Shown one piece after another: positions 5,803 to 17,218 of a DNA stretch of 64,000 nucleotides. The position numbers and the translations under genes are program-made. Within the stretch, counting starts at the first letter, position 1. Each line of letters begins with the position of its first letter. The notes beneath the pieces were generated by a model, which did not search any database, was not told the origin of the DNA, and saw nothing but the letters and a program-made list of their open reading frames with translations. Origin of the DNA: Escherichia coli phage AZ21; sequence record LC788708.1; one strand, given 5' to 3'.

Positions 5803-6156
5803 ATGTTGACAATACTATTATTTGTTATATTCTTCCTGAAACATTTTATGGCTGATTATCCCCTCCAAACTCCATACATGTTAAGGAAGACCCACAAAAT
5901 AGGGTGGAAACTTCCATTACTAACCCATTCTCTAGTACATGCTGGACTAACCTTTATAATTCTTACTATGTTCACATCACTAGGAATGGCTATAACTTTA
6001 GCTATAATGGAATTAATTCTACACTTTATCATAGATTACTGGAAAGCACAATGCTGTAAATACGATATAAGTGATTCCAGGTTTTGGATAGCTTTAGGAT
6101 TTGATCAGTTACTCCATTACTTAACCTATGCTCTCATAATTTTAATTATAATTTAG
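5803..6156 (+). CDS. hypothetical membrane protein
   Basis: 117 aa, several hydrophobic helices. Confidence 0.4.
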   Translation: MLTILLFVIFFLKHFMADYPLQTPYMLRKTHKIGWKLPLLTHSLVHAGLTFIILTMFTSLGMAITLAIMELILHFIIDYWKAQCCKYDISDSRFWIALGFDQLLHYLTYALIILIII

Positions 6157-6159
6157 CTC

Positions 6160-6190
6160 AAATAGCCCTTCGGGGCTATTATATTTAAAT
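6160..6190 (+). terminator. terminator-like hairpin
   Basis: ATAGCCC-TTCG-GGGCTAT hairpin then AT-rich run. Confidence 0.55.
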
Positions 6191-6250
6191 TTCATTTGCT
6201 TATTTAGTGAAATTTAAATATAATATATTTTATAAATTGGAGGTACACAT

Positions 6251-6508
6251 ATGGGACTCTTTAGAAAGAAAGTTTATTTAACAGAAGAGCAAGAACACAA
6301 ACTTCTTACTCTATCAGAATACTATCATTTACCATATGATTATTTTGTAGATAGAGCAATAGAGGAATTCTTAGATAGAGAATTAGAGGCTATAAAACCT
6401 AAGCCTCCTGAGCCGTCTTTAGCATCAAAGGGTCACCAAAGAGAATCCCCAAGAGTTCCGCCAATGCCCCCAATTCCACCAAAAACTAGAGTTGTAACAG
6501 AGTTGTAA
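6251..6508 (+). CDS. hypothetical protein, proline-rich C-terminus
   Basis: RBS GGAGG then ATG. Confidence 0.4.
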   Translation: MGLFRKKVYLTEEQEHKLLTLSEYYHLPYDYFVDRAIEEFLDRELEAIKPKPPEPSLASKGHQRESPRVPPMPPIPPKTRVVTEL

Positions 6509-6524
6509 TAGAAGGTAAAAAATA

Positions 6525-7004
6525 ATGTCGGTTTTCCACATTTACACAGATGGTGCTTGTAAGTCTAACCCAGGTCCAGGTGCTTGGGGTTTTATTGTCT
6601 ATAATGATAACGACGATCGTTTAGGTTCTAAATCTGGTTATAATCCTAAAACTACAAATAATGAGATGGAACTCACAGCTATTGTAGAAGCTCTACGTTG
6701 GTCTGTTAAAAAAGATAATAGACCAATTGCTATCTATACTGACTCTGCTTATTGCAAAAATGGCATGGAAAGCTGGATGTTTTCTTGGCAAAGGAAAGGC
6801 TGGAAGAAAGCAGATGGTGAAGTTCCTCTTAATCTAGAACTTTGGCAGGAAGCATTTAAATTAACACAGCAGTATATCAACTTTCATAATACTAATCCTA
6901 CCTTTATTAAGGTTAAAGGACATTCTGGTATTAGTGGTAATGAAGCTGTAGACGCCTTATGTAATACAGTTATTACTGAAGCTGAAATGGCTGAGATGTT
7001 ATAA
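6525..7004 (+). CDS. rnh: ribonuclease H
   Basis: RNase HI motifs: IYTDGAC, EMELTAI, YTDSAY, GHSGISGNEAVDAL. Confidence 0.8.
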   Translation: MSVFHIYTDGACKSNPGPGAWGFIVYNDNDDRLGSKSGYNPKTTNNEMELTAIVEALRWSVKKDNRPIAIYTDSAYCKNGMESWMFSWQRKGWKKADGEVPLNLELWQEAFKLTQQYINFHNTNPTFIKVKGHSGISGNEAVDALCNTVITEAEMAEML

Positions 7005-8544: not shown

Positions 8545-9246
8545 ATGAAAGTAAAACCATTTGGTATGCTAGATATTGAATCTCTAGGAACTCCAGGAGA
8601 TTGTGGTACTACCCATATCGCAATGCCTTCATTCGCTTTTGTGGCTATGCATGGAATTGATAAAGACCCTGATCTAGTATTTGTTACTTTAGATGTACAA
8701 GATCAACTTAATTCTGGTGCCAAAGTTACAGCATCTACTCTAGCATTCTGGATGGATCAGGCTAAACATAGCCCGTCTGCTATCCACATTATGGAAGCTA
8801 TGAATGAGCGTAATCCAAAACTGGTTGCCTTCCAAAATGGTAAACATCATTGCACTAATAAACTTGGCTCTAACCATGCTGCCTTCTCTATGGCTCAAAA
8901 TATTATGGAGTTGGCTCTAGGCGAAAATGCTTTGTATTATGGCAATGGCCCAGAGTTTGATATGACTATCTACTCTGCAAACACTTTCCATGCTGGAACC
9001 AATGAAGAAATAGTTCCGTGGAAATTCTGGAACTTGGGTAATGTTAGATCTCTTCGTAATCTCTGGATGCAAACTGGCTATAGTTATAAAGCTCTAGAAA
9101 CCGAAGGTATTAGCTGGGCAATAGCTAAAATGGAGAAGATGGACACCATTCGTTATGGGATCTATCCGGTTAAGCACGACCCAGCATTCGATGCCCTAGT
9201 TGAGAGCTATTGTGTTGCAGCTATGATCGAAAAAATGAAAATTTGA
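8545..9246 (+). CDS. putative DEDDh-type 3'-5' exonuclease
   Basis: Exo I-like LDIESLG near N-terminus and Exo III-like YPVKHDPAFDA near C-terminus. Confidence 0.5.
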   Translation: MKVKPFGMLDIESLGTPGDCGTTHIAMPSFAFVAMHGIDKDPDLVFVTLDVQDQLNSGAKVTASTLAFWMDQAKHSPSAIHIMEAMNERNPKLVAFQNGKHHCTNKLGSNHAAFSMAQNIMELALGENALYYGNGPEFDMTIYSANTFHAGTNEEIVPWKFWNLGNVRSLRNLWMQTGYSYKALETEGISWAIAKMEKMDTIRYGIYPVKHDPAFDALVESYCVAAMIEKMKI

Positions 9247-9247
9247 T

Positions 9248-9276
9248 TTGCTTCCGGCTCCAAAATTCTGTATAAT
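9248..9276 (+). promoter_or_regulatory. sigma70 promoter (T5 early type)
   Basis: TTGCTT-17-TATAAT then CATAAATTTGAG leader. Confidence 0.65.
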
Positions 9277-9316
9277 ATATTCATAAATTTGAGAAAACAA
9301 TAAAAGGAAAACAAAT

Positions 9317-9499
9317 ATGCCAGTATCTAAAAATGTTCGTAAAAATGGTAAGAAAGCTACTCGTAATCTGGGTATCCGTCGTATGGCTGAACGTCAATCA
9401 GGTATCCAGAAAATCTTTGATCTGCTAAATCGTGCTAATCCTAAAATTGATAACAGTAACGATACTGTTCTGCGCACCCTGCTGGCAATTGGTCTGTAA
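9317..9499 (+). CDS. hypothetical basic small protein
   Basis: 60 aa. Confidence 0.35.
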   Translation: MPVSKNVRKNGKKATRNLGIRRMAERQSGIQKIFDLLNRANPKIDNSNDTVLRTLLAIGL

Positions 9500-9552
9500 T
9501 AGACCAAATTTAAACAAATTCAAATCTCAAACTTCATATAAGGAAGCAAATA

Positions 9553-10191
9553 ATGACTACTCGTATCTCTAAAACTCGCGCTCTGGCAACTATCAAATCT
9601 CTGGAAGCTAAAATCCGTAAAGCTACTGAACAACAGCTTCTGATCGCTGTTGGTGAAGGTAAGGATAAAAACCAGGTTGTAGTTGGCGCTGCAATCGAAG
9701 TAGATGCCCTGTCTACTCGTATTAAAACTGATTTCCAATCTCTGCTGGATATGATGTCTCAGCGTGATCGTATTAAATCTGCTCTGATTAAGAGCAATGC
9801 AGAAACAATCGTTGAGATTGGTTCTCGTAAGATGACTGTTGCGGAAGCAATTGAAGCTAAGCGTTCTATGGAGCTTAAAGCTCAGCTGCTGGCTAACATG
9901 CGTAAGCAGTTCCATGCCGCTACGATTAAGTTTAATACGCAGAAAGCACAGTTTGATGCTAAATATGAGCGTTTGCAGGATAGCATGGCTACCCGCGATA
10001 AGAAAACTTCCGAAGATGAAGTTAAAATGCAGCTCAATCTGCTGGAACTCAAGAATACTCCATTCTTGATTGATCCGCTGGAACTGGAGAAGCTGATTAA
10101 GCAGCATGACGAGGAATACCAGGACTTTGCAACAAATGTTGACTTTGTTCTATCCGAGTCTAACGCCTCTACCTTCATTGAAGTAGAGTAA
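9553..10191 (+). CDS. hypothetical coiled-coil protein
   Basis: RBS AAGGAAG then ATG; 212 aa. Confidence 0.45.
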   Translation: MTTRISKTRALATIKSLEAKIRKATEQQLLIAVGEGKDKNQVVVGAAIEVDALSTRIKTDFQSLLDMMSQRDRIKSALIKSNAETIVEIGSRKMTVAEAIEAKRSMELKAQLLANMRKQFHAATIKFNTQKAQFDAKYERLQDSMATRDKKTSEDEVKMQLNLLELKNTPFLIDPLELEKLIKQHDEEYQDFATNVDFVLSESNASTFIEVE

Positions 10192-10574
10192 TAATTTAAA
10201 AGCTAGTAAATCGGTAGACGAAAGCCCAAGCATCTTACCTCGCAGCAGCGGTTGAAATACGAGGTTAAATAAGACCGCTGACCATACTATAAAGTATAAT
10301 CTATTGGAGATTATGTTTATTACACCAGCCTCTTAAGCTGACACGTAAGAACAAAGCGTCGTTGATATTACCGACACAACTTCAAAGATCAACATTTAAG
10401 TATGAAAGCTGAAAAGTTTAAAGAACTCAAACTTCTAAACTTCTAAAGCTAAAAGATGCAAAGTATTCGTTGATGATTCAAACCCTAGATCAAAGGTACA
10501 TGGCTCATAAGATATGGCCTGTGGCGCCTCTAGGCTGTTTATCGGTTTACTAGTTTCACAATTTAAAAATGTAT

Positions 10575-10603
10575 TTGCTAATTTACTAAGTTATCTGTAT
10601 AAT
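10575..10603 (+). promoter_or_regulatory. sigma70 promoter (T5 early type)
   Basis: TTGCTA-17-TATAAT then AAATTGATGAAACGAGG leader. Confidence 0.65.
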
Positions 10604-10633
10604 ATATTTTTAAATTGATGAAACGAGGCTATT

Positions 10634-10951
10634 ATGACTTTTCATATTTTGATTGATGATGTGCGTAATCTTCACGGAATGGACATTATCATTCGAACCC
10701 CAGAAGCCGCTGTAGAGTTTCTGAATAAAACTGATACCACAGGCCACTTCGTTTATATGGATAATGACTTGGCTGTAGATGGTATGGAAGGTTATCAAAT
10801 TCTTCGTTTACTCTTAGAATTTGGGCAGAGACCAAAGAAAGTGGTACTAGTAACCTCAAACCCAGTAGCTAAGCAAAATATGCGTAATGATTTGCTTGAC
10901 TTAGGGTATAAAGAAAATCCCAATCGTGTTGAATATGATTGGCAGGAGTAA
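10634..10951 (+). CDS. CheY-like receiver-domain protein (stand-alone)
   Basis: ILIDDV acidic pocket, YMDNDLAVDGMEG (Asp + MDG-like), VVLVTSN (conserved Thr/Ser) in receiver-domain order; 105 aa. Confidence 0.4.
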   Translation: MTFHILIDDVRNLHGMDIIIRTPEAAVEFLNKTDTTGHFVYMDNDLAVDGMEGYQILRLLLEFGQRPKKVVLVTSNPVAKQNMRNDLLDLGYKENPNRVEYDWQE

Positions 10952-10956
10952 AAAGA

Positions 10957-11406
10957 ATGAAGGCAGCTTTGCTTTTAGTAGCTGCCCTTACCTTCAGCTT
11001 TAGTAGTCAGGCATCGCACGATGCAAAAGAAATAGATTGCATTGCTAAAAATATCTATTTCGAGAGTCGCGGTGAGGGCATAAAGGGAATGACGGCGGTT
11101 GCACATGTTACTAAAAACCGTGTAAACTCCGGTAAATTCCCAGATTCCTACTGTAAAGTAGTATATCAGTCTAACCAGTTCTCTTGGGTATCTAAGAGAC
11201 CAAAAGTTGATAAAACTGATGAGGCTTGGCAAACCGCTAAGAATTTAGCTAGAGTGATATACTACGTTGATTTACCACAAGATCCTACGTATGGAGCACT
11301 ATACTTCCATAGTGGTAAAGATAAACCTTACTGGACAAAGAAGTTTAAGAAAACAACTAAGATTAAGGGACATACGTTTTATAAACCTGTTGTCACTAAA
11401 ACTTAA
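10957..11406 (+). CDS. SleB-like cell wall hydrolase with signal peptide
   Basis: Signal peptide MKAALLLVAALTFSFSSQA; YFESRGEG...AVAHVTKNRV...QFSW pattern typical of the SleB hydrolase family. Confidence 0.55.
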   Translation: MKAALLLVAALTFSFSSQASHDAKEIDCIAKNIYFESRGEGIKGMTAVAHVTKNRVNSGKFPDSYCKVVYQSNQFSWVSKRPKVDKTDEAWQTAKNLARVIYYVDLPQDPTYGALYFHSGKDKPYWTKKFKKTTKIKGHTFYKPVVTKT

Positions 11407-11414
11407 AAATTTAC

Positions 11415-11443
11415 TTGCTTAGCTACTTAAATTTCTGTATAAT
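11415..11443 (+). promoter_or_regulatory. sigma70 promoter (T5 early type)
   Basis: TTGCTT-17-TATAAT. Confidence 0.65.
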
Positions 11444-11474
11444 ACTTTCATAAATTAATGAGAGGAAGCGAAAT

Positions 11475-11645
11475 ATGAAATCAGTTGTAATTATTGGTGT
11501 TAACACTCGCGGTATTCGTACTACGAAAACTGTTAAAACTTCTAACGTTGCTGAAATCACTACGAACCCTAAAAAGTTTGATTTCGCCAAAGTCTCAGCA
11601 GTTATGACAGAACAATCTTTTAACCAAGCATTGGGGATGAAATAA
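11475..11645 (+). CDS. hypothetical small protein (56 aa, below ORF-track cutoff)
   Basis: Promoter plus RBS GAGAGGAAG then ATG; stop overlaps next start (ATAATG). Confidence 0.4.
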   Translation: MKSVVIIGVNTRGIRTTKTVKTSNVAEITTNPKKFDFAKVSAVMTEQSFNQALGMK

Positions 11646-12079
11646 TGGGTGAAAATATTCTAATGACCCTTCGTGGACTGCTTAGTCTAGCACGTACCCA
11701 CGGTGATAAGGAGAGGGCACTTAATCTTCAGACCATGATTGGTGATCTGCAACGTATTGATAAAGACATTGTTACTCGAACCGAGTTCGTAGCCTATCTG
11801 AAAGCTCAGATTAAGGCTCTAGAAAATGCAAAACAACGCGCTATTAAAGTTGGTACGGAAGTTCCTACTGATGTAGACTATGAGCAACTGCTTTATTCCA
11901 TGCTGCAAGAGTATCAGCCAAGTCAACTGACTGAAGTTCAGATTCGTGAGTATTTTGCAGAACTGGTTAAATTAAACCCAGGTATTACCAAAGCTCTATT
12001 AATGAAAACTATTAAGGCAGAATTTCCTGGACGTTATGACGGTAAAACAACTGCTTTGATTGCTAGTGAATTTTTCTAA
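11645..12079 (+). CDS. hypothetical protein
   Basis: 144 aa, coupled to upstream small ORF. Confidence 0.45.
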   Translation: MGENILMTLRGLLSLARTHGDKERALNLQTMIGDLQRIDKDIVTRTEFVAYLKAQIKALENAKQRAIKVGTEVPTDVDYEQLLYSMLQEYQPSQLTEVQIREYFAELVKLNPGITKALLMKTIKAEFPGRYDGKTTALIASEFF

Positions 12080-12087
12080 AAATTCAC

Positions 12088-12116
12088 TTGCTAAATGCTT
12101 ATAAATTCTATATAAT
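12088..12116 (+). promoter_or_regulatory. sigma70 promoter (T5 early type) ahead of tRNA cluster
   Basis: TTGCTA-17-TATAAT. Confidence 0.65.
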
Positions 12117-12193
12117 ATATTCATAAATTAGATGATAATTAGGCATCTAATTTATAAATAGTGGGGTGTGGAAATCACTTATGTAGTAACACT

Positions 12194-12265
12194 GCCGTCC
12201 TAGTATAATTGGTATTATCAAGCCGTAACTGGTGGAAGATGTAGGTTCGAATCCTACGGTCGGTA
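12194..12265 (+). tRNA. tRNA-like element, isotype undetermined
   Basis: Perfect T-arm GTAGG-TTCGAAT-CCTAC and D-loop GG, but acceptor and anticodon stems did not pair cleanly by eye. Confidence 0.35.
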
Positions 12266-12767
12266 AGAACTGGATAACTGATGCTTTTAACGTAAAAGCT
12301 TCCGAGGTTAGTTGCGCACTGCCTAAACCACGCGGTAGTTGGTTCCAGACTAACCAACCAGTCTGCTGAATAGTTTTATTACGATTTAACTATGTCCAGG
12401 CTAAAGAAGAACTTTAGAAGGTATTCTAGGATAGTGAAGTTCTTTCTCCACATCGGAGTAGTTTTTCAAGCTATCCACAAAGTGGGAAATGCTGACATGA
12501 GAGATGTCACTAATGGTGCACAATAGCACAGGTAATTCGCGATAATTCCTGTTGAGTAGCAGCAAAAGGCGGGAAGTCATGACCCCAAGCCTAACCGAGT
12601 CCTCAATATACCGCAGGGCATAACCACTAAGTCACCCTGACTTAAACTGGAAAATAATAGACGTTACTGTATTTTGTCTTGAAATACTTAATGAGTGAGA
12701 CTTATGACTCTCCCGGTATCGTCTGTATTTTTAAGAGTTTTTACGAGAGTTCTTAAAAATACTTAAA

Positions 12768-12842
12768 CGGGGTGTAGTCTAAGGGAGAGGCAGGAGTCTT
12801 CTAAATTCCTTTATGCAGGTTCGAATCCTGTCACCTCGGCCA
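12768..12842 (+). tRNA. tRNA-Arg (anticodon UCU), CCA encoded
   Basis: Acceptor CGGGGTG/CACCTCG, anticodon stem GGAGT/ATTCC with loop CTTCTAA, T-arm GCAGG-TTCGAAT-CCTGT. Confidence 0.65.
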
Positions 12843-12876
12843 ATTTTATTAACTGTAACTAAAACAAAGGAAACAT

Positions 12877-13824
12877 ATGTTTAATACTAAAAATATGAAA
12901 GAATTGACTTCTGAGCAGAAAGTAATTCGTACTATTAAACGTTGGGGTATTGGTGCTGTAGTTGGTTTAGCAGGTTTAATCCTAGCTTTTAATTCGTATA
13001 CCATTGTTTCTGATGGTACGGTTAAAACCCAAACATTCCTGGGTAAAGTAGACCCTAATCCAGTATTACCTGGTTTCCATCTTGTAAACCCGTTTGCATC
13101 TTTCGATACTTTTAGTACGAAAGATATTTCTATGAAACTGGATAAACTTCAGGTTCCTAGCCAGGATAAGTTTAAGTCTACAGTTGACATTACCGTTATG
13201 TTGCAGTTTGATGGTGCTAAAGCTCCTATTAACCGTGTTAACGCAGGTACTCAGGATCAAGCTCTGAACAAGTACGTTGAAGAGAAGATGCTGTCTACGA
13301 TTCGTGAGTTTGGTAAGTCTGTACCAAAAGCACAAGATCTGTTCGACGCTAAGATTCAGGCTCAACTGCAAACCGCTATTCAGCAAGAAGTAGAAGAGTA
13401 TGCGCGTCCTTATGGCTACACCGTTAAGCAAGTATTCCTTCAGGATATTACTCTGCCACCGGTAATCATGGAACAGGTACAAAACACCAAAGTTCGTGAA
13501 GAACAAGTTAACGCTGCAAAAGCTGAACTAGCTCGTGTTGAACAAGAAGCACAGCAGAAAGTTAAGCAAGCTGAGGCTGATCGTTCTGCTCGTGAAAATA
13601 TGGCAGTAGCTAACGAACGTGACGCAGATGCTAAACTGTATGCGGCTAAGAAAGAAGCTGAAGCTAACACCGCTCTGCAGCGTACCATCACTCCAGAGAT
13701 GATTCGCTGGAAACAGCTGGAAGTTGATATGAAACGCGCTGAAAAATATCAGGGTGGCGTTCCTCAGACTGTTGTAGGTACTGGTTATGATGGCCAGATG
13801 ATTATGGATATGCGTAATAAGTAA
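12877..13824 (+). CDS. SPFH/band-7 (prohibitin/HflKC-like) membrane protein
   Basis: N-terminal TM helix, SPFH-like core, long Ala/Glu/Gln-rich coiled-coil tail. Confidence 0.55.
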   Translation: MFNTKNMKELTSEQKVIRTIKRWGIGAVVGLAGLILAFNSYTIVSDGTVKTQTFLGKVDPNPVLPGFHLVNPFASFDTFSTKDISMKLDKLQVPSQDKFKSTVDITVMLQFDGAKAPINRVNAGTQDQALNKYVEEKMLSTIREFGKSVPKAQDLFDAKIQAQLQTAIQQEVEEYARPYGYTVKQVFLQDITLPPVIMEQVQNTKVREEQVNAAKAELARVEQEAQQKVKQAEADRSARENMAVANERDADAKLYAAKKEAEANTALQRTITPEMIRWKQLEVDMKRAEKYQGGVPQTVVGTGYDGQMIMDMRNK

Positions 13825-13848
13825 TAGTTACACGTAATCTTCGAAACA

Positions 13849-13882
13849 AGCCCGCGTTTCCTCCGAGAGCGCGGGCTTTTCT
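13849..13882 (+). terminator. rho-independent terminator
   Basis: AGCCCGCG...CGCGGGCT hairpin followed by TTTTCTG. Confidence 0.7.
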
Positions 13883-14027
13883 GTATTTAAGGCAAAAGAA
13901 AAGCCCATAAGTTATTCAACTAAGGTCTTTAGTACTTAATTCTTTAGAATCATATACTATTATTGCAGCAACAACGTGCTACCACTAAATGCCCTACGAT
14001 TTTCCTCTAAAAAGTTAAAAAATTCGA

Positions 14028-14056
14028 TTGCTTGAATGCTAAATTCTCTGTATAAT
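14028..14056 (+). promoter_or_regulatory. sigma70 promoter (T5 early type)
   Basis: TTGCTT-17-TATAAT then TTATAAATTTGAGAGAGG leader. Confidence 0.65.
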
Positions 14057-14086
14057 ATATTTATAAATTTGAGAGAGGAATCAAAT

Positions 14087-14383
14087 ATGAAACGCATTGT
14101 ACTTGCATTGACTCTAGTATCTACTTCTGTATTTGCTGCTCCACAACAGGAACTTTGTCAAGTTCAAGTTTGTAATAAGCTAGAACGATTTACTTTGGAT
14201 ATTTGGTCACACATTAAAGATAATATGGGTGAGCAATGTTTTGATATTGTTCTGCCAAAAGAACAAGCTGTTCCTGGTGCTGTTCTCAGCTCAGAATCAC
14301 GTTGGTGGCAAGGTTCTTCTATCAATCCAACTAAGAAGTCAGTGACACGTATCAAACAAGTGTATCAGTGCAGTGTTCAGTAA
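14087..14383 (+). CDS. small secreted Cys-containing protein
   Basis: Signal peptide MKRIVLALTLVSTSVFA; track ORF trimmed to RBS-supported ATG. Confidence 0.45.
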   Translation: MKRIVLALTLVSTSVFAAPQQELCQVQVCNKLERFTLDIWSHIKDNMGEQCFDIVLPKEQAVPGAVLSSESRWWQGSSINPTKKSVTRIKQVYQCSVQ

Positions 14384-14391
14384 AATTTCAC

Positions 14392-14420
14392 TTGCTTAAT
14401 GCCGAAATTTTCTATATAAT
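14392..14420 (+). promoter_or_regulatory. sigma70 promoter (T5 early type)
   Basis: TTGCTT-17-TATAAT. Confidence 0.65.
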
Positions 14421-14451
14421 ATATTCTATAAATTATAGATAGGAGTCATAT

Positions 14452-14970
14452 ATGACTGTTGACGAGTTAAAACAACATCTTTTATCTAGGGGCTTTGATA
14501 GTGATAAGTATCACTGTTGGCTCTCTCCACATGGATGGTTAACAGTTCCACTGTATGATTTCTCTGGCATGTTACGTGGATATCAAACATATAACCCTAG
14601 TGCAGCTAAAGGTCATGGAAAATGTCCTTCTGAAGCTAAATATTTTACGCATTCTTCTACTCAATGTCTATGGGGTTTAGAAACTCTTACAGGTAATGAA
14701 GACCTAGTATTAGTTGCAGAATCTGTATTTAAAGCTGTGGCACTACACAACGCGGGATATCCCGCACTAGCAATGCTAGGATCTTCCCCTAGCAAAGCAC
14801 TGCTAAAGCAGCTAAAATTACAACCTTTTAAAGTAGTAGCCGTAGGCGATAATGATTCTGCTGGTGAGAAGTTTGCTAAAAAACTAAATGGGTTTACTTC
14901 CCTCATGGATTTAGATGAAATGAATACAGAAAACTTGAAAAATTTTCTTGCCATGAAGCTAAATTTCTAA
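14452..14970 (+). CDS. Toprim-domain protein (primase-like fold)
   Basis: Toprim-like conserved Glu (LVLVAESVF) and DxD (VAVGDNDSAG). Confidence 0.4.
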   Translation: MTVDELKQHLLSRGFDSDKYHCWLSPHGWLTVPLYDFSGMLRGYQTYNPSAAKGHGKCPSEAKYFTHSSTQCLWGLETLTGNEDLVLVAESVFKAVALHNAGYPALAMLGSSPSKALLKQLKLQPFKVVAVGDNDSAGEKFAKKLNGFTSLMDLDEMNTENLKNFLAMKLNF

Positions 14971-14976
14971 TATAAT
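14948..14976 (+). promoter_or_regulatory. sigma70 promoter inside the 3' end of the preceding CDS, ahead of tRNA pair
   Basis: TTGCCA-17-TATAAT then CATAAATTTGG; tRNA starts about 15 nt downstream. Confidence 0.55.
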
Positions 14977-14990
14977 ATATTCATAAATTT

Positions 14991-15084
14991 GGAAGATTAA
15001 CCCTAAAGGTAAGGGAGCTGTTTGCTAAACAGCCAGTAGCTGTGGAGACACGGTGTGCCAGTTCGAATCTGGCATCTTCCTCCA
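14991..15084 (+). tRNA. tRNA-Ser (anticodon GCU), long variable arm, CCA encoded
   Basis: Acceptor GGAAGAT/ATCTTCC, anticodon stem GCTGT/ACAGC with loop TTGCTAA, T-arm GCCAG-TTCGAAT-CTGGC. Confidence 0.7.
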
Positions 15085-15089
15085 AATTT

Positions 15090-15167
15090 GGTTCTCAAGC
15101 TCATTTGGTATGAGCCGTCGCCTCATAAGCGAAAGGTAGGCAGGTTCGAATCCTCCGGGAGCCACCA
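15090..15167 (+). tRNA. tRNA with CAU anticodon (Met or Ile2), CCA encoded
   Basis: Acceptor GGTTCTC/GGGAGCC with G-U pairs, anticodon loop CTCATAA, T-loop TTCGAAT. Confidence 0.65.
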
Positions 15168-15186
15168 AATTAAATAAGGACAACTA

Positions 15187-15375
15187 ATGGAATTATTCAT
15201 AGTTTCTATTAAATTTGCACAAGATAGAGAACATTCGGACGAGTTTAAACAAGGGTACAGACTAGTAAAGGCTACATCTGAACTACATGCTATGGACAAA
15301 GTAGTAGACTATATGTATAAAGTAGAAGACGTTTACTACGTCAATGCTTTAGAAGCCTCAAAAGTAATTAACTAG
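15187..15375 (+). CDS. hypothetical protein
   Basis: RBS AAGGA then ATG. Confidence 0.3.
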   Translation: MELFIVSIKFAQDREHSDEFKQGYRLVKATSELHAMDKVVDYMYKVEDVYYVNALEASKVIN

Positions 15376-15383
15376 GAGACTAT

Positions 15384-15569
15384 ATGTCCAAATTTCAAGA
15401 ACTCAAGCAAGAGCTAGAAGAGTGTGCCTGCCCAAAATGCTTCGGAGTAGGTGAGTGGAACGATGCTGAACCCGGTGATACACGGTATAATACATACGTT
15501 TGTACATATTGTAATGGTTCTGGTATTAATCCTGAATGTGGTATTTCTCTAGACATTGAGCGAGGTTAA
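15384..15569 (+). CDS. small zinc-finger-like protein
   Basis: Two CxxCxGxG-like motifs (CPKCFGVG, CTYCNGSG). Confidence 0.4.
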   Translation: MSKFQELKQELEECACPKCFGVGEWNDAEPGDTRYNTYVCTYCNGSGINPECGISLDIERG

Positions 15570-15909
15570 GATGGATATTTTTACTACTCCGGCAATAAAC
15601 CTTTTAGGTGTTGGCTTGTTCCAAGCTACGGTGTATCGTACTGATGATTCTACTGATGTGGTAACGTTCATCGTACCTGAGTTCTTCCTAGAAAAGTTCT
15701 TTGAAGAGTTTGAGCAGTTCCGTGAAGAACACAATGCTCATTCCGATATGGAAGATCTAGCAGCTATGTTCCCTGCGGTTTACGGCTATATCTTTGAAGG
15801 TAATGGCCTAGATCTTAATAAATCTGAACTCGTTGAACTTAACTGGGGCATCAATTTTGAAGTTGGCTCTCCATTCCCTCGATATTTCCAGGGTTTAGAG
15901 ATTCGCTAA
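15556..15909 (+). CDS. hypothetical acidic protein
   Basis: Start overlaps upstream stop. Confidence 0.4.
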   Translation: MSEVKMDIFTTPAINLLGVGLFQATVYRTDDSTDVVTFIVPEFFLEKFFEEFEQFREEHNAHSDMEDLAAMFPAVYGYIFEGNGLDLNKSELVELNWGINFEVGSPFPRYFQGLEIR

Positions 15910-15917
15910 GATTACAT

Positions 15918-15994
15918 GGGGGTGTAATCGAATTGGCATAGGTACTGGACTTAAAATTCAGGTTTTGTGGGTTCGAATCCCACCACCCCTACCA
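15918..15994 (+). tRNA. tRNA, anticodon apparently UAA (isotype uncertain), CCA encoded
   Basis: Acceptor GGGGGTG/CACCCCT, anticodon stem CTGGA/TTCAG with loop CTTAAAA, T-arm GTGGG-TTCGAAT-CCCAC; short variable loop is atypical for Leu. Confidence 0.5.
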
Positions 15995-16145
15995 AATTAA
16001 GGAAATAAAATGAAAGCTATTAAGAAAGCACTGCGTAAATTTATGTATTGTCGTTTTCATAGCATCAAGGCTTCAACTAATGGTACTACTTACGATCGCT
16101 ATGATCCTAAGTTTGGCTTACATTCTAAATAACTGGAGAAAACAA

Positions 16146-16352
16146 ATGGCTAATCCTGAAATTACGGCACAACGCTTTATGCTGAAAGGAATTATTGCTG
16201 AAGCAGGCATGACAGAAGAAGTTGCAGATTTTCAAAAGCAATTCCTCAATATTCTCACTCAAGCCAAAGAGCTAGGAGAGAAAGAACATGGCGCGGCTAT
16301 TATGGCAATCACATTGGTTGGGCTTGATCTGGCTGAAGAATCAGGAGTTTAA
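16146..16352 (+). CDS. hypothetical protein
   Basis: RBS CTGGAG then ATG; track ORF trimmed. Confidence 0.35.
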   Translation: MANPEITAQRFMLKGIIAEAGMTEEVADFQKQFLNILTQAKELGEKEHGAAIMAITLVGLDLAEESGV

Positions 16353-16382
16353 CTCCTCCAAGCAGAAATTTTAAAAATGTAC

Positions 16383-16412
16383 TTGCTTTTTGCTTAAGAT
16401 TTCTGCTATAAT
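16383..16412 (+). promoter_or_regulatory. sigma70 promoter (T5 early type)
   Basis: TTGCTT-18-TATAAT then AAGTTGATGAGAGG leader. Confidence 0.6.
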
Positions 16413-16441
16413 AGTTATATAAGTTGATGAGAGGAATCAGA

Positions 16442-16717
16442 ATGTTAAAACGTTTTGCAGCAACTGGTATTGAAAGCTCAGTATGTAAATCCTGGGGTGG
16501 TTGGGAAGGTGAGATCGAGTGGCTTCAGTTCTACAATGTAGAACTTCTTCCAGAGATCAAAGCTCAATGTATTGAGGCTGGTATGGCTCCTGATGCTACG
16601 GCTGATGTTGAAATCAGCATGAATAAGCTAGAGGGTCGAGTAGTCACTGTTACTGATGAAGGTGAAGAGGTATTCGAACTTCCATTCACTTTGAAAGTCA
16701 CTCCTTCATTTGATTAA
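16442..16717 (+). CDS. hypothetical protein
   Basis: RBS GAGAGGAATC then ATG. Confidence 0.4.
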   Translation: MLKRFAATGIESSVCKSWGGWEGEIEWLQFYNVELLPEIKAQCIEAGMAPDATADVEISMNKLEGRVVTVTDEGEEVFELPFTLKVTPSFD

Positions 16718-16753
16718 CTGATACAGCACTGAGCAAGTTCTTTAAAATTTGAC

Positions 16754-16782
16754 TTGCTCAGTGCCTTAAAACTTGATATAAT
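16754..16782 (+). promoter_or_regulatory. sigma70 promoter ahead of tRNA-Tyr
   Basis: TTGCTC-17-TATAAT. Confidence 0.6.
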
Positions 16783-16847
16783 ATTTATCTAATTTGGAAA
16801 CATATTTAAAAGTGTTTAAATGAGAATTTTTGAATACTTCTAAATAT

Positions 16848-16935
16848 GGGCGTTTATTCCGTAAGTGGTAGCGGAGGGGATTGTAAATCCCTGGTCATTG
16901 CGACTCGAGTGGTTCGACTCCATTAACGCCCACCA
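16848..16935 (+). tRNA. tRNA-Tyr (anticodon GUA), long variable arm, CCA encoded
   Basis: Acceptor GGGCGTT/AACGCCC, anticodon stem GGGGA/TCCCT with loop TTGTAAA, T-loop TTCGACT. Confidence 0.7.
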
Positions 16936-16952
16936 AATTAAAGGTAAAGGAT

Positions 16953-17144
16953 ATGTATATTGATCGGATAATTCAAGAAGCTGCAAATAGGGGTATTATA
17001 CAGTTGGGTTCACCCGCTGATATAAATAAAGATCTAATATTAGAAAGCCTCACATTTGGTACAGCTAACTTTGGTCGCGATAGTAATCGTCGATATAGCT
17101 TGAAGTTATCTGCACTATCTTTTATCAAGTATAACAAATTATAG
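16953..17144 (+). CDS. hypothetical protein
   Basis: 63 aa between two tRNAs; weak support. Confidence 0.25.
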   Translation: MYIDRIIQEAANRGIIQLGSPADINKDLILESLTFGTANFGRDSNRRYSLKLSALSFIKYNKL

Positions 17145-17218
17145 TTAGTTGGCAGAGTGGTTATGCACCTCCTTCATACGGAGCGACTACAGTGGTTCAA
17201 CTCCACTACTAACTACCA
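17143..17218 (+). tRNA. tRNA with CAU anticodon (Met or Ile2), CCA encoded
   Basis: Acceptor AGTTAGT/ACTAACT, anticodon loop TTCATAC, T-arm AGTGG-TTCAACT-CCACT. Confidence 0.6.

Follow-up and report, generated by a model that had tools for sequence, protein, structure and literature searches.

A cRec-family protein encoded by T5-type phage AZ21 combines a predicted receiver-like fold with a conserved pocket that suggests phosphoesterase chemistry

The 64,000-nucleotide stretch of the Escherichia coli phage AZ21 genome analysed here (sequence record LC788708.1; the window) contains, at positions 10634–10951 of the plus strand, an ATG-initiated open reading frame (ORF) of 105 codons and a stop codon. 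An original prediction, made from the letters alone, had described its product as a stand-alone CheY-like receiver-domain protein that could act as a phosphate sink or decoy and so rewire host two-component signalling. The locus raises the question of what kind of receiver this small phage protein is and what it would do during infection. We found the ORF in the window sequence with the quoted peptides exactly as that prediction had given them.

Pfam searches matched the protein to PF20274 (cREC_REC, "cyclic-phosphate processing receiver domain") with 56.8 bits against a cut-off of 27 and an E-value of 3.8e-15. The match spans residues 4–87 of the protein and positions 2–86 of the 88 in the model, and all 109 of the diverse relatives in our alignment match the same family. 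The protein also matched phrog_1479, a family of unknown function (E 3.8e-30); NCBIfam and PADLOC gave no match to it. The cRec family goes back to Iyer, Anantharaman, Krishnan, Burroughs and Aravind (Viruses 2021; PMC7824862), who defined it as a divergent receiver that never occurs with histidine kinases and who, from its neighbourhood links to RNA ligases, WYL domains and NAD+/ADP-ribose enzymes, predicted that it hydrolyses cyclic ADP-ribose or 2',3'-cyclic phosphates. The cRec name is already attached to T5-like orthologues in UniRef and NCBI, and in GenBank the same gene bears it in at least two phage records. Judged by its profile matches, the AZ21 ORF is a member of the cRec family, which, including its T5-like members, is already known. 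Because the family has been described and its T5-like orthologues are annotated in databases, the identification is a re-discovery. A search of the literature for T5 together with receiver domains returned nothing.

The gene is the orthologue of T5 ORF079. The AZ21 protein shares 96% identity with its T5 counterpart, and the ratio of nonsynonymous to synonymous substitution rates (dN/dS) among T5-group orthologues is 0.06–0.09. The gene is carried by 493 phage records, mainly from Demerecviridae and also from KVP40-like Vibrio phages, where identity is about 37%. At 50% identity the family comprises 232 clusters (E<=1e-3); at 90% identity, a profile search recovered at least 4,587. Its members are almost all stand-alone and about 100 amino acids long, and the AZ21 product, as predicted, has no output domain. 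The family occurs in phages with hosts among Proteobacteria, Firmicutes and Actinobacteria, and the same invariant pocket is found throughout.

Conservation is concentrated in a small set of residues. The mean column identity of the family alignment is only 24%, and the positions that are invariant or nearly so are D8, D9, R11, D17, R21, D43, D45, G47, G53, P67, T/S74, N76, P77 and Y92. D8, D9, D43 and D45 are invariant in the 109-sequence alignment and all four are present in the AZ21 protein. Residue percentages, calculated from 150 sequences, are 100% for D8, 99% for D9, 93% for R11, 88% for D17, 97% for R21, 99% for N76 and 86% for P77. Position 44 is H in 67% and N in 29%, and position 74 is T in 76% and S in 24%, adding up to 100% T/S. 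The proposed phospho-acceptor, D43, is conserved in 99% of the homologues. It lies with D45 in the peptide YMDNDL, and both of these Asp residues are invariant; D49, the third Asp of the peptide that had been quoted, is not conserved.

An AlphaFold2 model based on the 109 relatives (mean predicted local distance difference test score 96.2, predicted template modelling score 0.89) has a five-stranded core with three helices only and is without α1 and α5. Its structural neighbours are receivers, not Toprim domains. When the cRec family was aligned by hhalign with receiver sequences from CheY, Spo0F, PhoB, OmpR and NarL, a receiver match was recovered with a probability of 78% and an E-value of 1.8e-5. 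In this alignment, the residue mapping of which depends on this small set of five hand-typed receiver sequences, D8/D9 correspond to CheY D12/D13, D43 to D57, D45 to N59 (position D+2), G53 to G65, T74 to T87 and N76 to E89 (position T+2). The equivalences of D43 and T74 were reproduced independently when HMMER aligned the family profile with solved regulators from the PDB. The acidic pair, the central Asp and the Thr/Ser are spaced as in receivers, just as had been proposed. When PDB sequences were searched with the protein or the family profile, the receiver matches were only marginal, and spurious repeat proteins (designed β-trefoils, the TALE Hax3 and NLRP3) also came up; we discounted these.

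The conserved residues map onto four segments of the gene, all on the plus strand. The D8-D9 codons (10655–10660) encode the acidic pair after β1, the predicted Mg2+ ligands. Codons at 10664–10696 cover the short loop that replaces helix α1 and run through the end of β2, including R11, D17 and R21. The D-x-D motif at the end of β3 is encoded by the D43-N44-D45 codons (10760–10768), and the T/S-x-N-P motif at the end of β4 by the T74-S75-N76-P77 codons (10853–10864). With CheY and Spo0F receivers (PF00072) the protein shares the core fold, the equivalents of the DD pair, the D and the T, the G-Y at the start of β5 and the Gly at D+8. Taking the model and these alignments together, the receiver relationship is one of fold and ancestry.

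The protein departs from the same receivers in having an Asp at D+2, an invariant Asn at T+2, a Gly rather than a Pro at D+4 and the additional conserved residues R11, D17 and R21. The match to Pfam Response_reg (PF00072) reached 12.5 bits (E 0.17) against a cut-off of 30.2, and weak matches to this family occur in only 15 of the 109 relatives. The receiver active-site quintet includes a β5 Lys, and by the definition used by the Bourret laboratory a receiver without it is a pseudo-receiver. In the AZ21 protein this Lys is absent: position 95, three residues past the conserved G91-Y92 (CheY G105-Y106), is Asn, a Lys stands there in 13% of the family, and the family alignment has no conserved C-terminal Lys column. 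DSSP assigned no helix in the model between residues 8 and 17, that is between β1 and β2, and none after β5. In the hhalign alignment a 10-residue gap falls exactly opposite CheY α1 and the C-terminal part could not be aligned; the complete (βα)5 topology is not found in the cRec protein. Helix α1 is the principal docking surface of receivers for kinases and Hpt domains, and α4-β5-α5 is their usual output face.

No kinase partner accompanies the gene, as had also been predicted: we found no histidine kinase within ±6 kb of it in the window. HisKA, HATPase_c and Hpt were absent from eight metagenomic contexts and from the families listed for 275 nearest-neighbour proteins at 48 non-redundant loci. 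On these features of sequence and model, the protein is not a canonical two-component receiver and should not be labelled a response regulator. The original description is thus supported in part: the fold and the stand-alone character hold, but the function proposed with them is unlikely.

Compared with receivers, the family has three distinctive features, namely the invariant Asp at D+2, which forms the D-x-D motif, the invariant Asn at T+2, and conserved Arg residues in the loop that replaces α1 and at the end of β2. The rates at which receivers are phosphorylated and dephosphorylated are set by D+2 and T+2, which contact the attacking and leaving groups. The active site of HAD enzymes superposes on that of CheY, and the HAD D-x-D motif supplies the nucleophile and the general acid/base. 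In the DxDxT domain of T4 Pnkp, the D-x-D pair opens an RNA 2',3'-cyclic phosphate and then removes the resulting phosphate (PMC3592404). With the HAD DxDxT acylphosphatases cRec shares a Rossmann-like fold, a D-x-D motif in which the first Asp takes the nucleophile position, a Ser/Thr on the strand that follows and an acidic pair that would bind Mg2+. It differs from them in that there is no sequence relationship, in that its motif lies on β3 of a receiver fold whereas the HAD motif lies on β1, and in lacking a cap domain and the motif-III Lys; the likeness is one of functional analogy only, not of membership.

The family invariants (DD, D-x-D, T/S-x-N-P, R11 and R21) suggest, by this analogy, an aspartyl phosphoesterase that depends on Mg2+ and resembles HAD DxDxT enzymes. 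Because of the roles of D+2 and T+2 in receivers and the HAD D-x-D analogy, we favour a Mg2+-dependent aspartyl-phosphoenzyme. Our best explanation of the locus, held with moderate confidence, is that it encodes an early cRec enzyme that would use this chemistry on a nucleotide-linked phosphate, and not a signalling switch.

The proposed mechanism would begin with expression early in infection from the gene's own strong promoter. A predicted sigma-70 promoter at 10575–10603 of the plus strand consists of TTGCTA (10575–10580) and TATAAT (10598–10603) separated by a 17-nt spacer (10 of 12 matches); its position is that of the "putative early promoter T5P23" annotated directly upstream of the orthologue in the T5 record AY587007. 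A Shine-Dalgarno sequence, GAGG (10625–10628, plus strand), stands 5 nt before the ATG. By these signs, and by its dN/dS, the gene is real, expressed-looking and under strong selection. In the protein, D8 and D9, perhaps with D17, would bind Mg2+, and D43 would act as the nucleophile on a phosphoester to give an aspartyl-phosphate intermediate, with D45 as the putative general acid/base, on the pattern of HAD-type DxDxT acylphosphatases. The phosphate and a water molecule would be positioned by T74 and N76, and R11, R21 and K80 are putative substitutes for the lost β5 Lys. The substrate would likely be a nucleotide-linked phosphate, cyclic or terminal. Candidates are RNA 2',3'-cyclic or 3'-phosphate ends, 2',3'-cyclic nucleoside monophosphates (2',3'-cNMPs) and ADP-ribose-derived phosphates, and the candidate roles are phage counter-defence, RNA end-healing and nucleotide salvage.

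Several observations weigh against this enzymatic reading. In receivers without the β5 Lys the phosphochemistry is usually crippled. No HAD model is among the Pfam matches listed for the 109 relatives, and the D-x-D/HAD analogy is for this reason convergent at best. The residue roles given above, including those of R11, R21 and K80, are hypotheses. No biochemical or genetic study of any cRec member was found in the literature searched.

The gene neighbourhood adds to these reservations. Loci were retrieved with a 27-sequence alignment through the DHDLG and TSNPVGR motifs, a choice biased to the mainstream of the family, and gave 66 loci with 1,222 neighbour ORFs, which were clustered; the loci fall into 48 groups at <80% cRec identity, and Pfam annotation covered three genes on each side of cRec. 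There is no conserved partner gene: no neighbour cluster occurs in more than five of the 48 groups, and the most recurrent, thymidylate synthase, reaches exactly that number. RtcB, RNA_lig_T4_1, RNA_ligase, HAD_SAK_2, SIR2, Tad3 (a Thoeris inhibitor) and a Nudt16-like domain were each matched once among the 48 loci, where HD_4 is also a sporadic neighbour. RtcB is one small gene away from cRec in locus L022, a further RNA_ligase lies 2.4 kb from cRec in locus L005, and three of the 137 neighbour proteins scanned are Rv2179c-like exoribonucleases. Domains of RNA repair or NAD conflict occur only sporadically, in at most about one-fifth of the loci, and their direction agrees with the published prediction. 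The neighbours of cRec are mostly small unknown ORFs, a setting that any accessory gene would be expected to have. The T5-type genome has no RNA ligase, and its NAD-using genes (two Sir2-like ORFs and a split NAD-dependent DNA ligase) lie 12–24 kb from cRec. With no recurrent partner, no RNA ligase in T5 and distant NAD genes, guilt-by-association for the stand-alone subfamily is weak. The AZ21 protein resembles the described family in its full-length match above cut-off, its set of invariant Asp residues, its stand-alone and phage-borne nature and its want of kinase partners; the T5-type gene differs in not being linked to the NAD+/ADP-ribose enzymes, WYL domains and RNA ligases on which the family's functional prediction was based.

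A more specific version of the enzymatic reading is that T5 ORF079/cRec would be the first receiver-superfamily protein to catalyse a reaction on a non-protein substrate, destroying or remodelling a host nucleotide-derived immune signal or damage product. Its targets may be an ADP-ribose phosphate or cyclic phosphate, a 2',3'-cyclic nucleotide or the ends of cleaved tRNAs. We put this forward tentatively, as an idea that is unlikely on present evidence. A precedent is the phage Macro-domain enzyme Adpp, the ADPR-1''-phosphate phosphatase (ADPR, ADP-ribose) of the NARP1-AP pathway, which defeats NAD+ depletion of the RES type (bioRxiv 10.64898/2026.01.28.702374). As a small phage phosphatase that acts on ADP-ribose-derived phosphates against an NAD+-depleting defence, Adpp occupies the niche predicted for cRec; it differs in having a Macro fold and in being operon-linked to NARP1 genes, and T5 cRec has no such operon. 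We considered whether cRec was itself the phosphatase in that 2026 study of RES defence and rejected this, since the enzyme there is the Macro domain and cRec proteins play no part in the study (bioRxiv 10.64898/2026.01.28.702374). The comparison shows that the niche predicted for cRec exists and has so far been filled by another fold.

Four other explanations were weighed. The protein could be a non-catalytic binder. It might take up a host nucleotide immune signal as a sponge, or regulate a host or phage factor by protein-protein contact in the manner of a pseudo-receiver. In size it resembles known phage sponges, for the product is small (about 100 amino acids); it is also stand-alone and early, is encoded among genes of accessory or anti-defence type (ArdA, AbiEii, Tad3) and, as a receiver without the Lys, is formally a pseudo-receiver. 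Four invariant Asp residues in the metal/nucleophile geometry of receivers, together with T/S-x-N, nevertheless exceed the needs of simple binding. A viral contig (L021) carries a tandem pair in which an intact cRec gene (6001–6312) adjoins a degenerate paralogue (6314–6640) with DD changed to HD, DHDLG to ECSFCG and TSNPVGR to TYDSPGR. These residues are not structurally obligatory, because the paralogue beside the intact copy has lost them, a point that counts against mere binding; the paralogue itself may be an inactive partner or regulator. We regard a purely binding function as rather unlikely.

Two further possibilities are both improbable in our estimate, and to the same degree. One is a two-metal phosphodiesterase or nuclease that would act on nucleic acid or oligonucleotides by Toprim-like chemistry, with no covalent intermediate. 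The D-x-D-L-G sequence that ends a β-strand is reminiscent of the DxD motif of Toprim domains, and the five conserved acidic residues (D8, D9, D17, D43 and D45), the presence of RNase H and an Rv2179c-like 3'-5' exoribonuclease among the T5 neighbours and an HNH-cRec fusion in Epseptimaviruses would suit such an activity. Against this, Toprim is absent from the families listed for the 109 relatives, the structural neighbours are receivers, and a conserved T/S with an Asn at T+2 is characteristic of phospho-aspartyl chemistry. The other is a housekeeping phosphatase with the same chemistry as our best explanation, which would convert, for example, 2',3'-cNMPs or 3'-nucleoside monophosphates to nucleosides and feed T5 nucleotide metabolism instead of opposing host defence. 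In T5-like phages and phage My1 the gene does lie between the block that encodes ribonucleotide reductase (RNR), dihydrofolate reductase (DHFR), thymidylate synthase and RNase H and the tRNA cluster, and DHFR and thymidylate kinase are seen as neighbours in addition to the recurrent thymidylate synthase. This recurrence is low, however, and partly reflects shared ancestry within Demerecviridae, and most loci have no nucleotide-metabolism genes.

Least probable is the phosphate sink or decoy, phosphorylated by host histidine kinases or Hpt proteins, of the original prediction: the DD pair, the acceptor Asp, the β4 Thr, the REC-like fold and the weak Response_reg matches in relatives are in its favour, but the sub-threshold Response_reg score, the missing β5 Lys, the loss of α5 and replacement of the kinase-docking α1 by a loop, the absence of kinase families among neighbours, in line with the family's description (PMC7824862), and a pocket that stays constant across three groups of hosts all oppose it, and such a pocket is easier to reconcile with a small, universal substrate than with host-specific kinases.

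The window belongs to a T5-type phage genome: positions 9000–13000 match Escherichia coli phage AZ23 at 100% identity and many Tequintavirus genomes at about 98%. The T5-type gene order runs from a nucleotide-metabolism block (RNR, DHFR, thymidylate synthase, RNase H and the Rv2179c-like exoribonuclease) to cRec and then to the tRNA cluster. The gene downstream of cRec, at 10957–11406, starts 6 nt past the cRec stop codon and encodes a cell-wall hydrolase of the SleB type that carries a signal peptide at its N terminus; it lies within the early region, far from the lysis cassette. Because no terminator-like site was found between the two genes, they are probably co-transcribed. We rejected a functional link between cRec and the SleB-like hydrolase, since their adjacency is lost in phage My1.

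Around cRec, several annotations call for comment. Relatives call the ORF at 8545–9246 a "metallopeptidase" or "exonuclease"; its product matches the Rv2179c-like 3'-5' exoribonuclease family (E 3.2e-08). At 9553–10191 lies a 212-residue ORF (T5 ORF080) that many T5-like records call a "tail fiber protein"; it stands in the early region and has no Pfam match, and the label looks like a propagated annotation error. It is followed by a 440-bp untranslated gap, and this stretch, upstream of cRec, gave no match in Rfam. In the T5 record AY587007 (our locus L002), ORF079 is annotated only as a 55-residue C-terminal fragment (L002 5151–5318). The full 105-residue ORF and T5P23 are intact there, the ORF occupying L002 5001–5315 (AY587007 42669–42983, minus strand), equivalent to window positions 10634–10951; the T5 reference record under-calls the cRec gene.

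Other observations concern relatives and the tRNA region. In some Epseptimaviruses, cRec forms the C-terminal part of a 273-residue ORF the N-terminal half of which is an HNH_3 homing endonuclease (Pfam 4e-12), as in Salmonella phage bux (L013 2985–3806), P0033 and the BFVD entry UPI0001D25F73; the record of HildyBeyeler gives "intein-containing hypothetical protein" under the homologous match. This ORF may be a true fusion or a mobile-element insertion with a lost stop codon. Stand-alone cRec genes often stand in arrays of small ORFs with ArdA anti-restriction, AbiEii, Tad3, DNA methylase, UDG-superfamily and SprT-like genes (for example L004 4394–4795 and 6880–7797, and the neighbour sets), an arrangement that fits phage accessory "counter-defence" islands. 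Rfam detected an additional tRNA-like element at 12194–12265 (35.5 bits) that ARAGORN does not report and that relatives annotate as a pseudo or "OTHER" tRNA. The window has only 6–7 tRNAs (region 12768–17218) compared with 23 in phage MM-1, and AZ23 is 104 kb long compared with 118–122 kb for its relatives, which together suggest the classic deletion of the T5 tRNA region.

Since the family is known and annotated in databases, the finding by itself adds little. Its value lies in a family of thousands of members for which there is only a prediction, and in a gene under strong selection in a genetically tractable model phage. In its active site, cRec appears to combine receiver chemistry with that of HAD phosphatases. 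If activity were shown, a receiver-fold enzyme would be established, and it could represent a new class in the phage toolkit against defences that target NAD+, nucleotides or RNA. If the immune-signal reading is true, cRec would be a widespread and so far unrecognised phage counter-defence enzyme that could be studied in a classic model phage.
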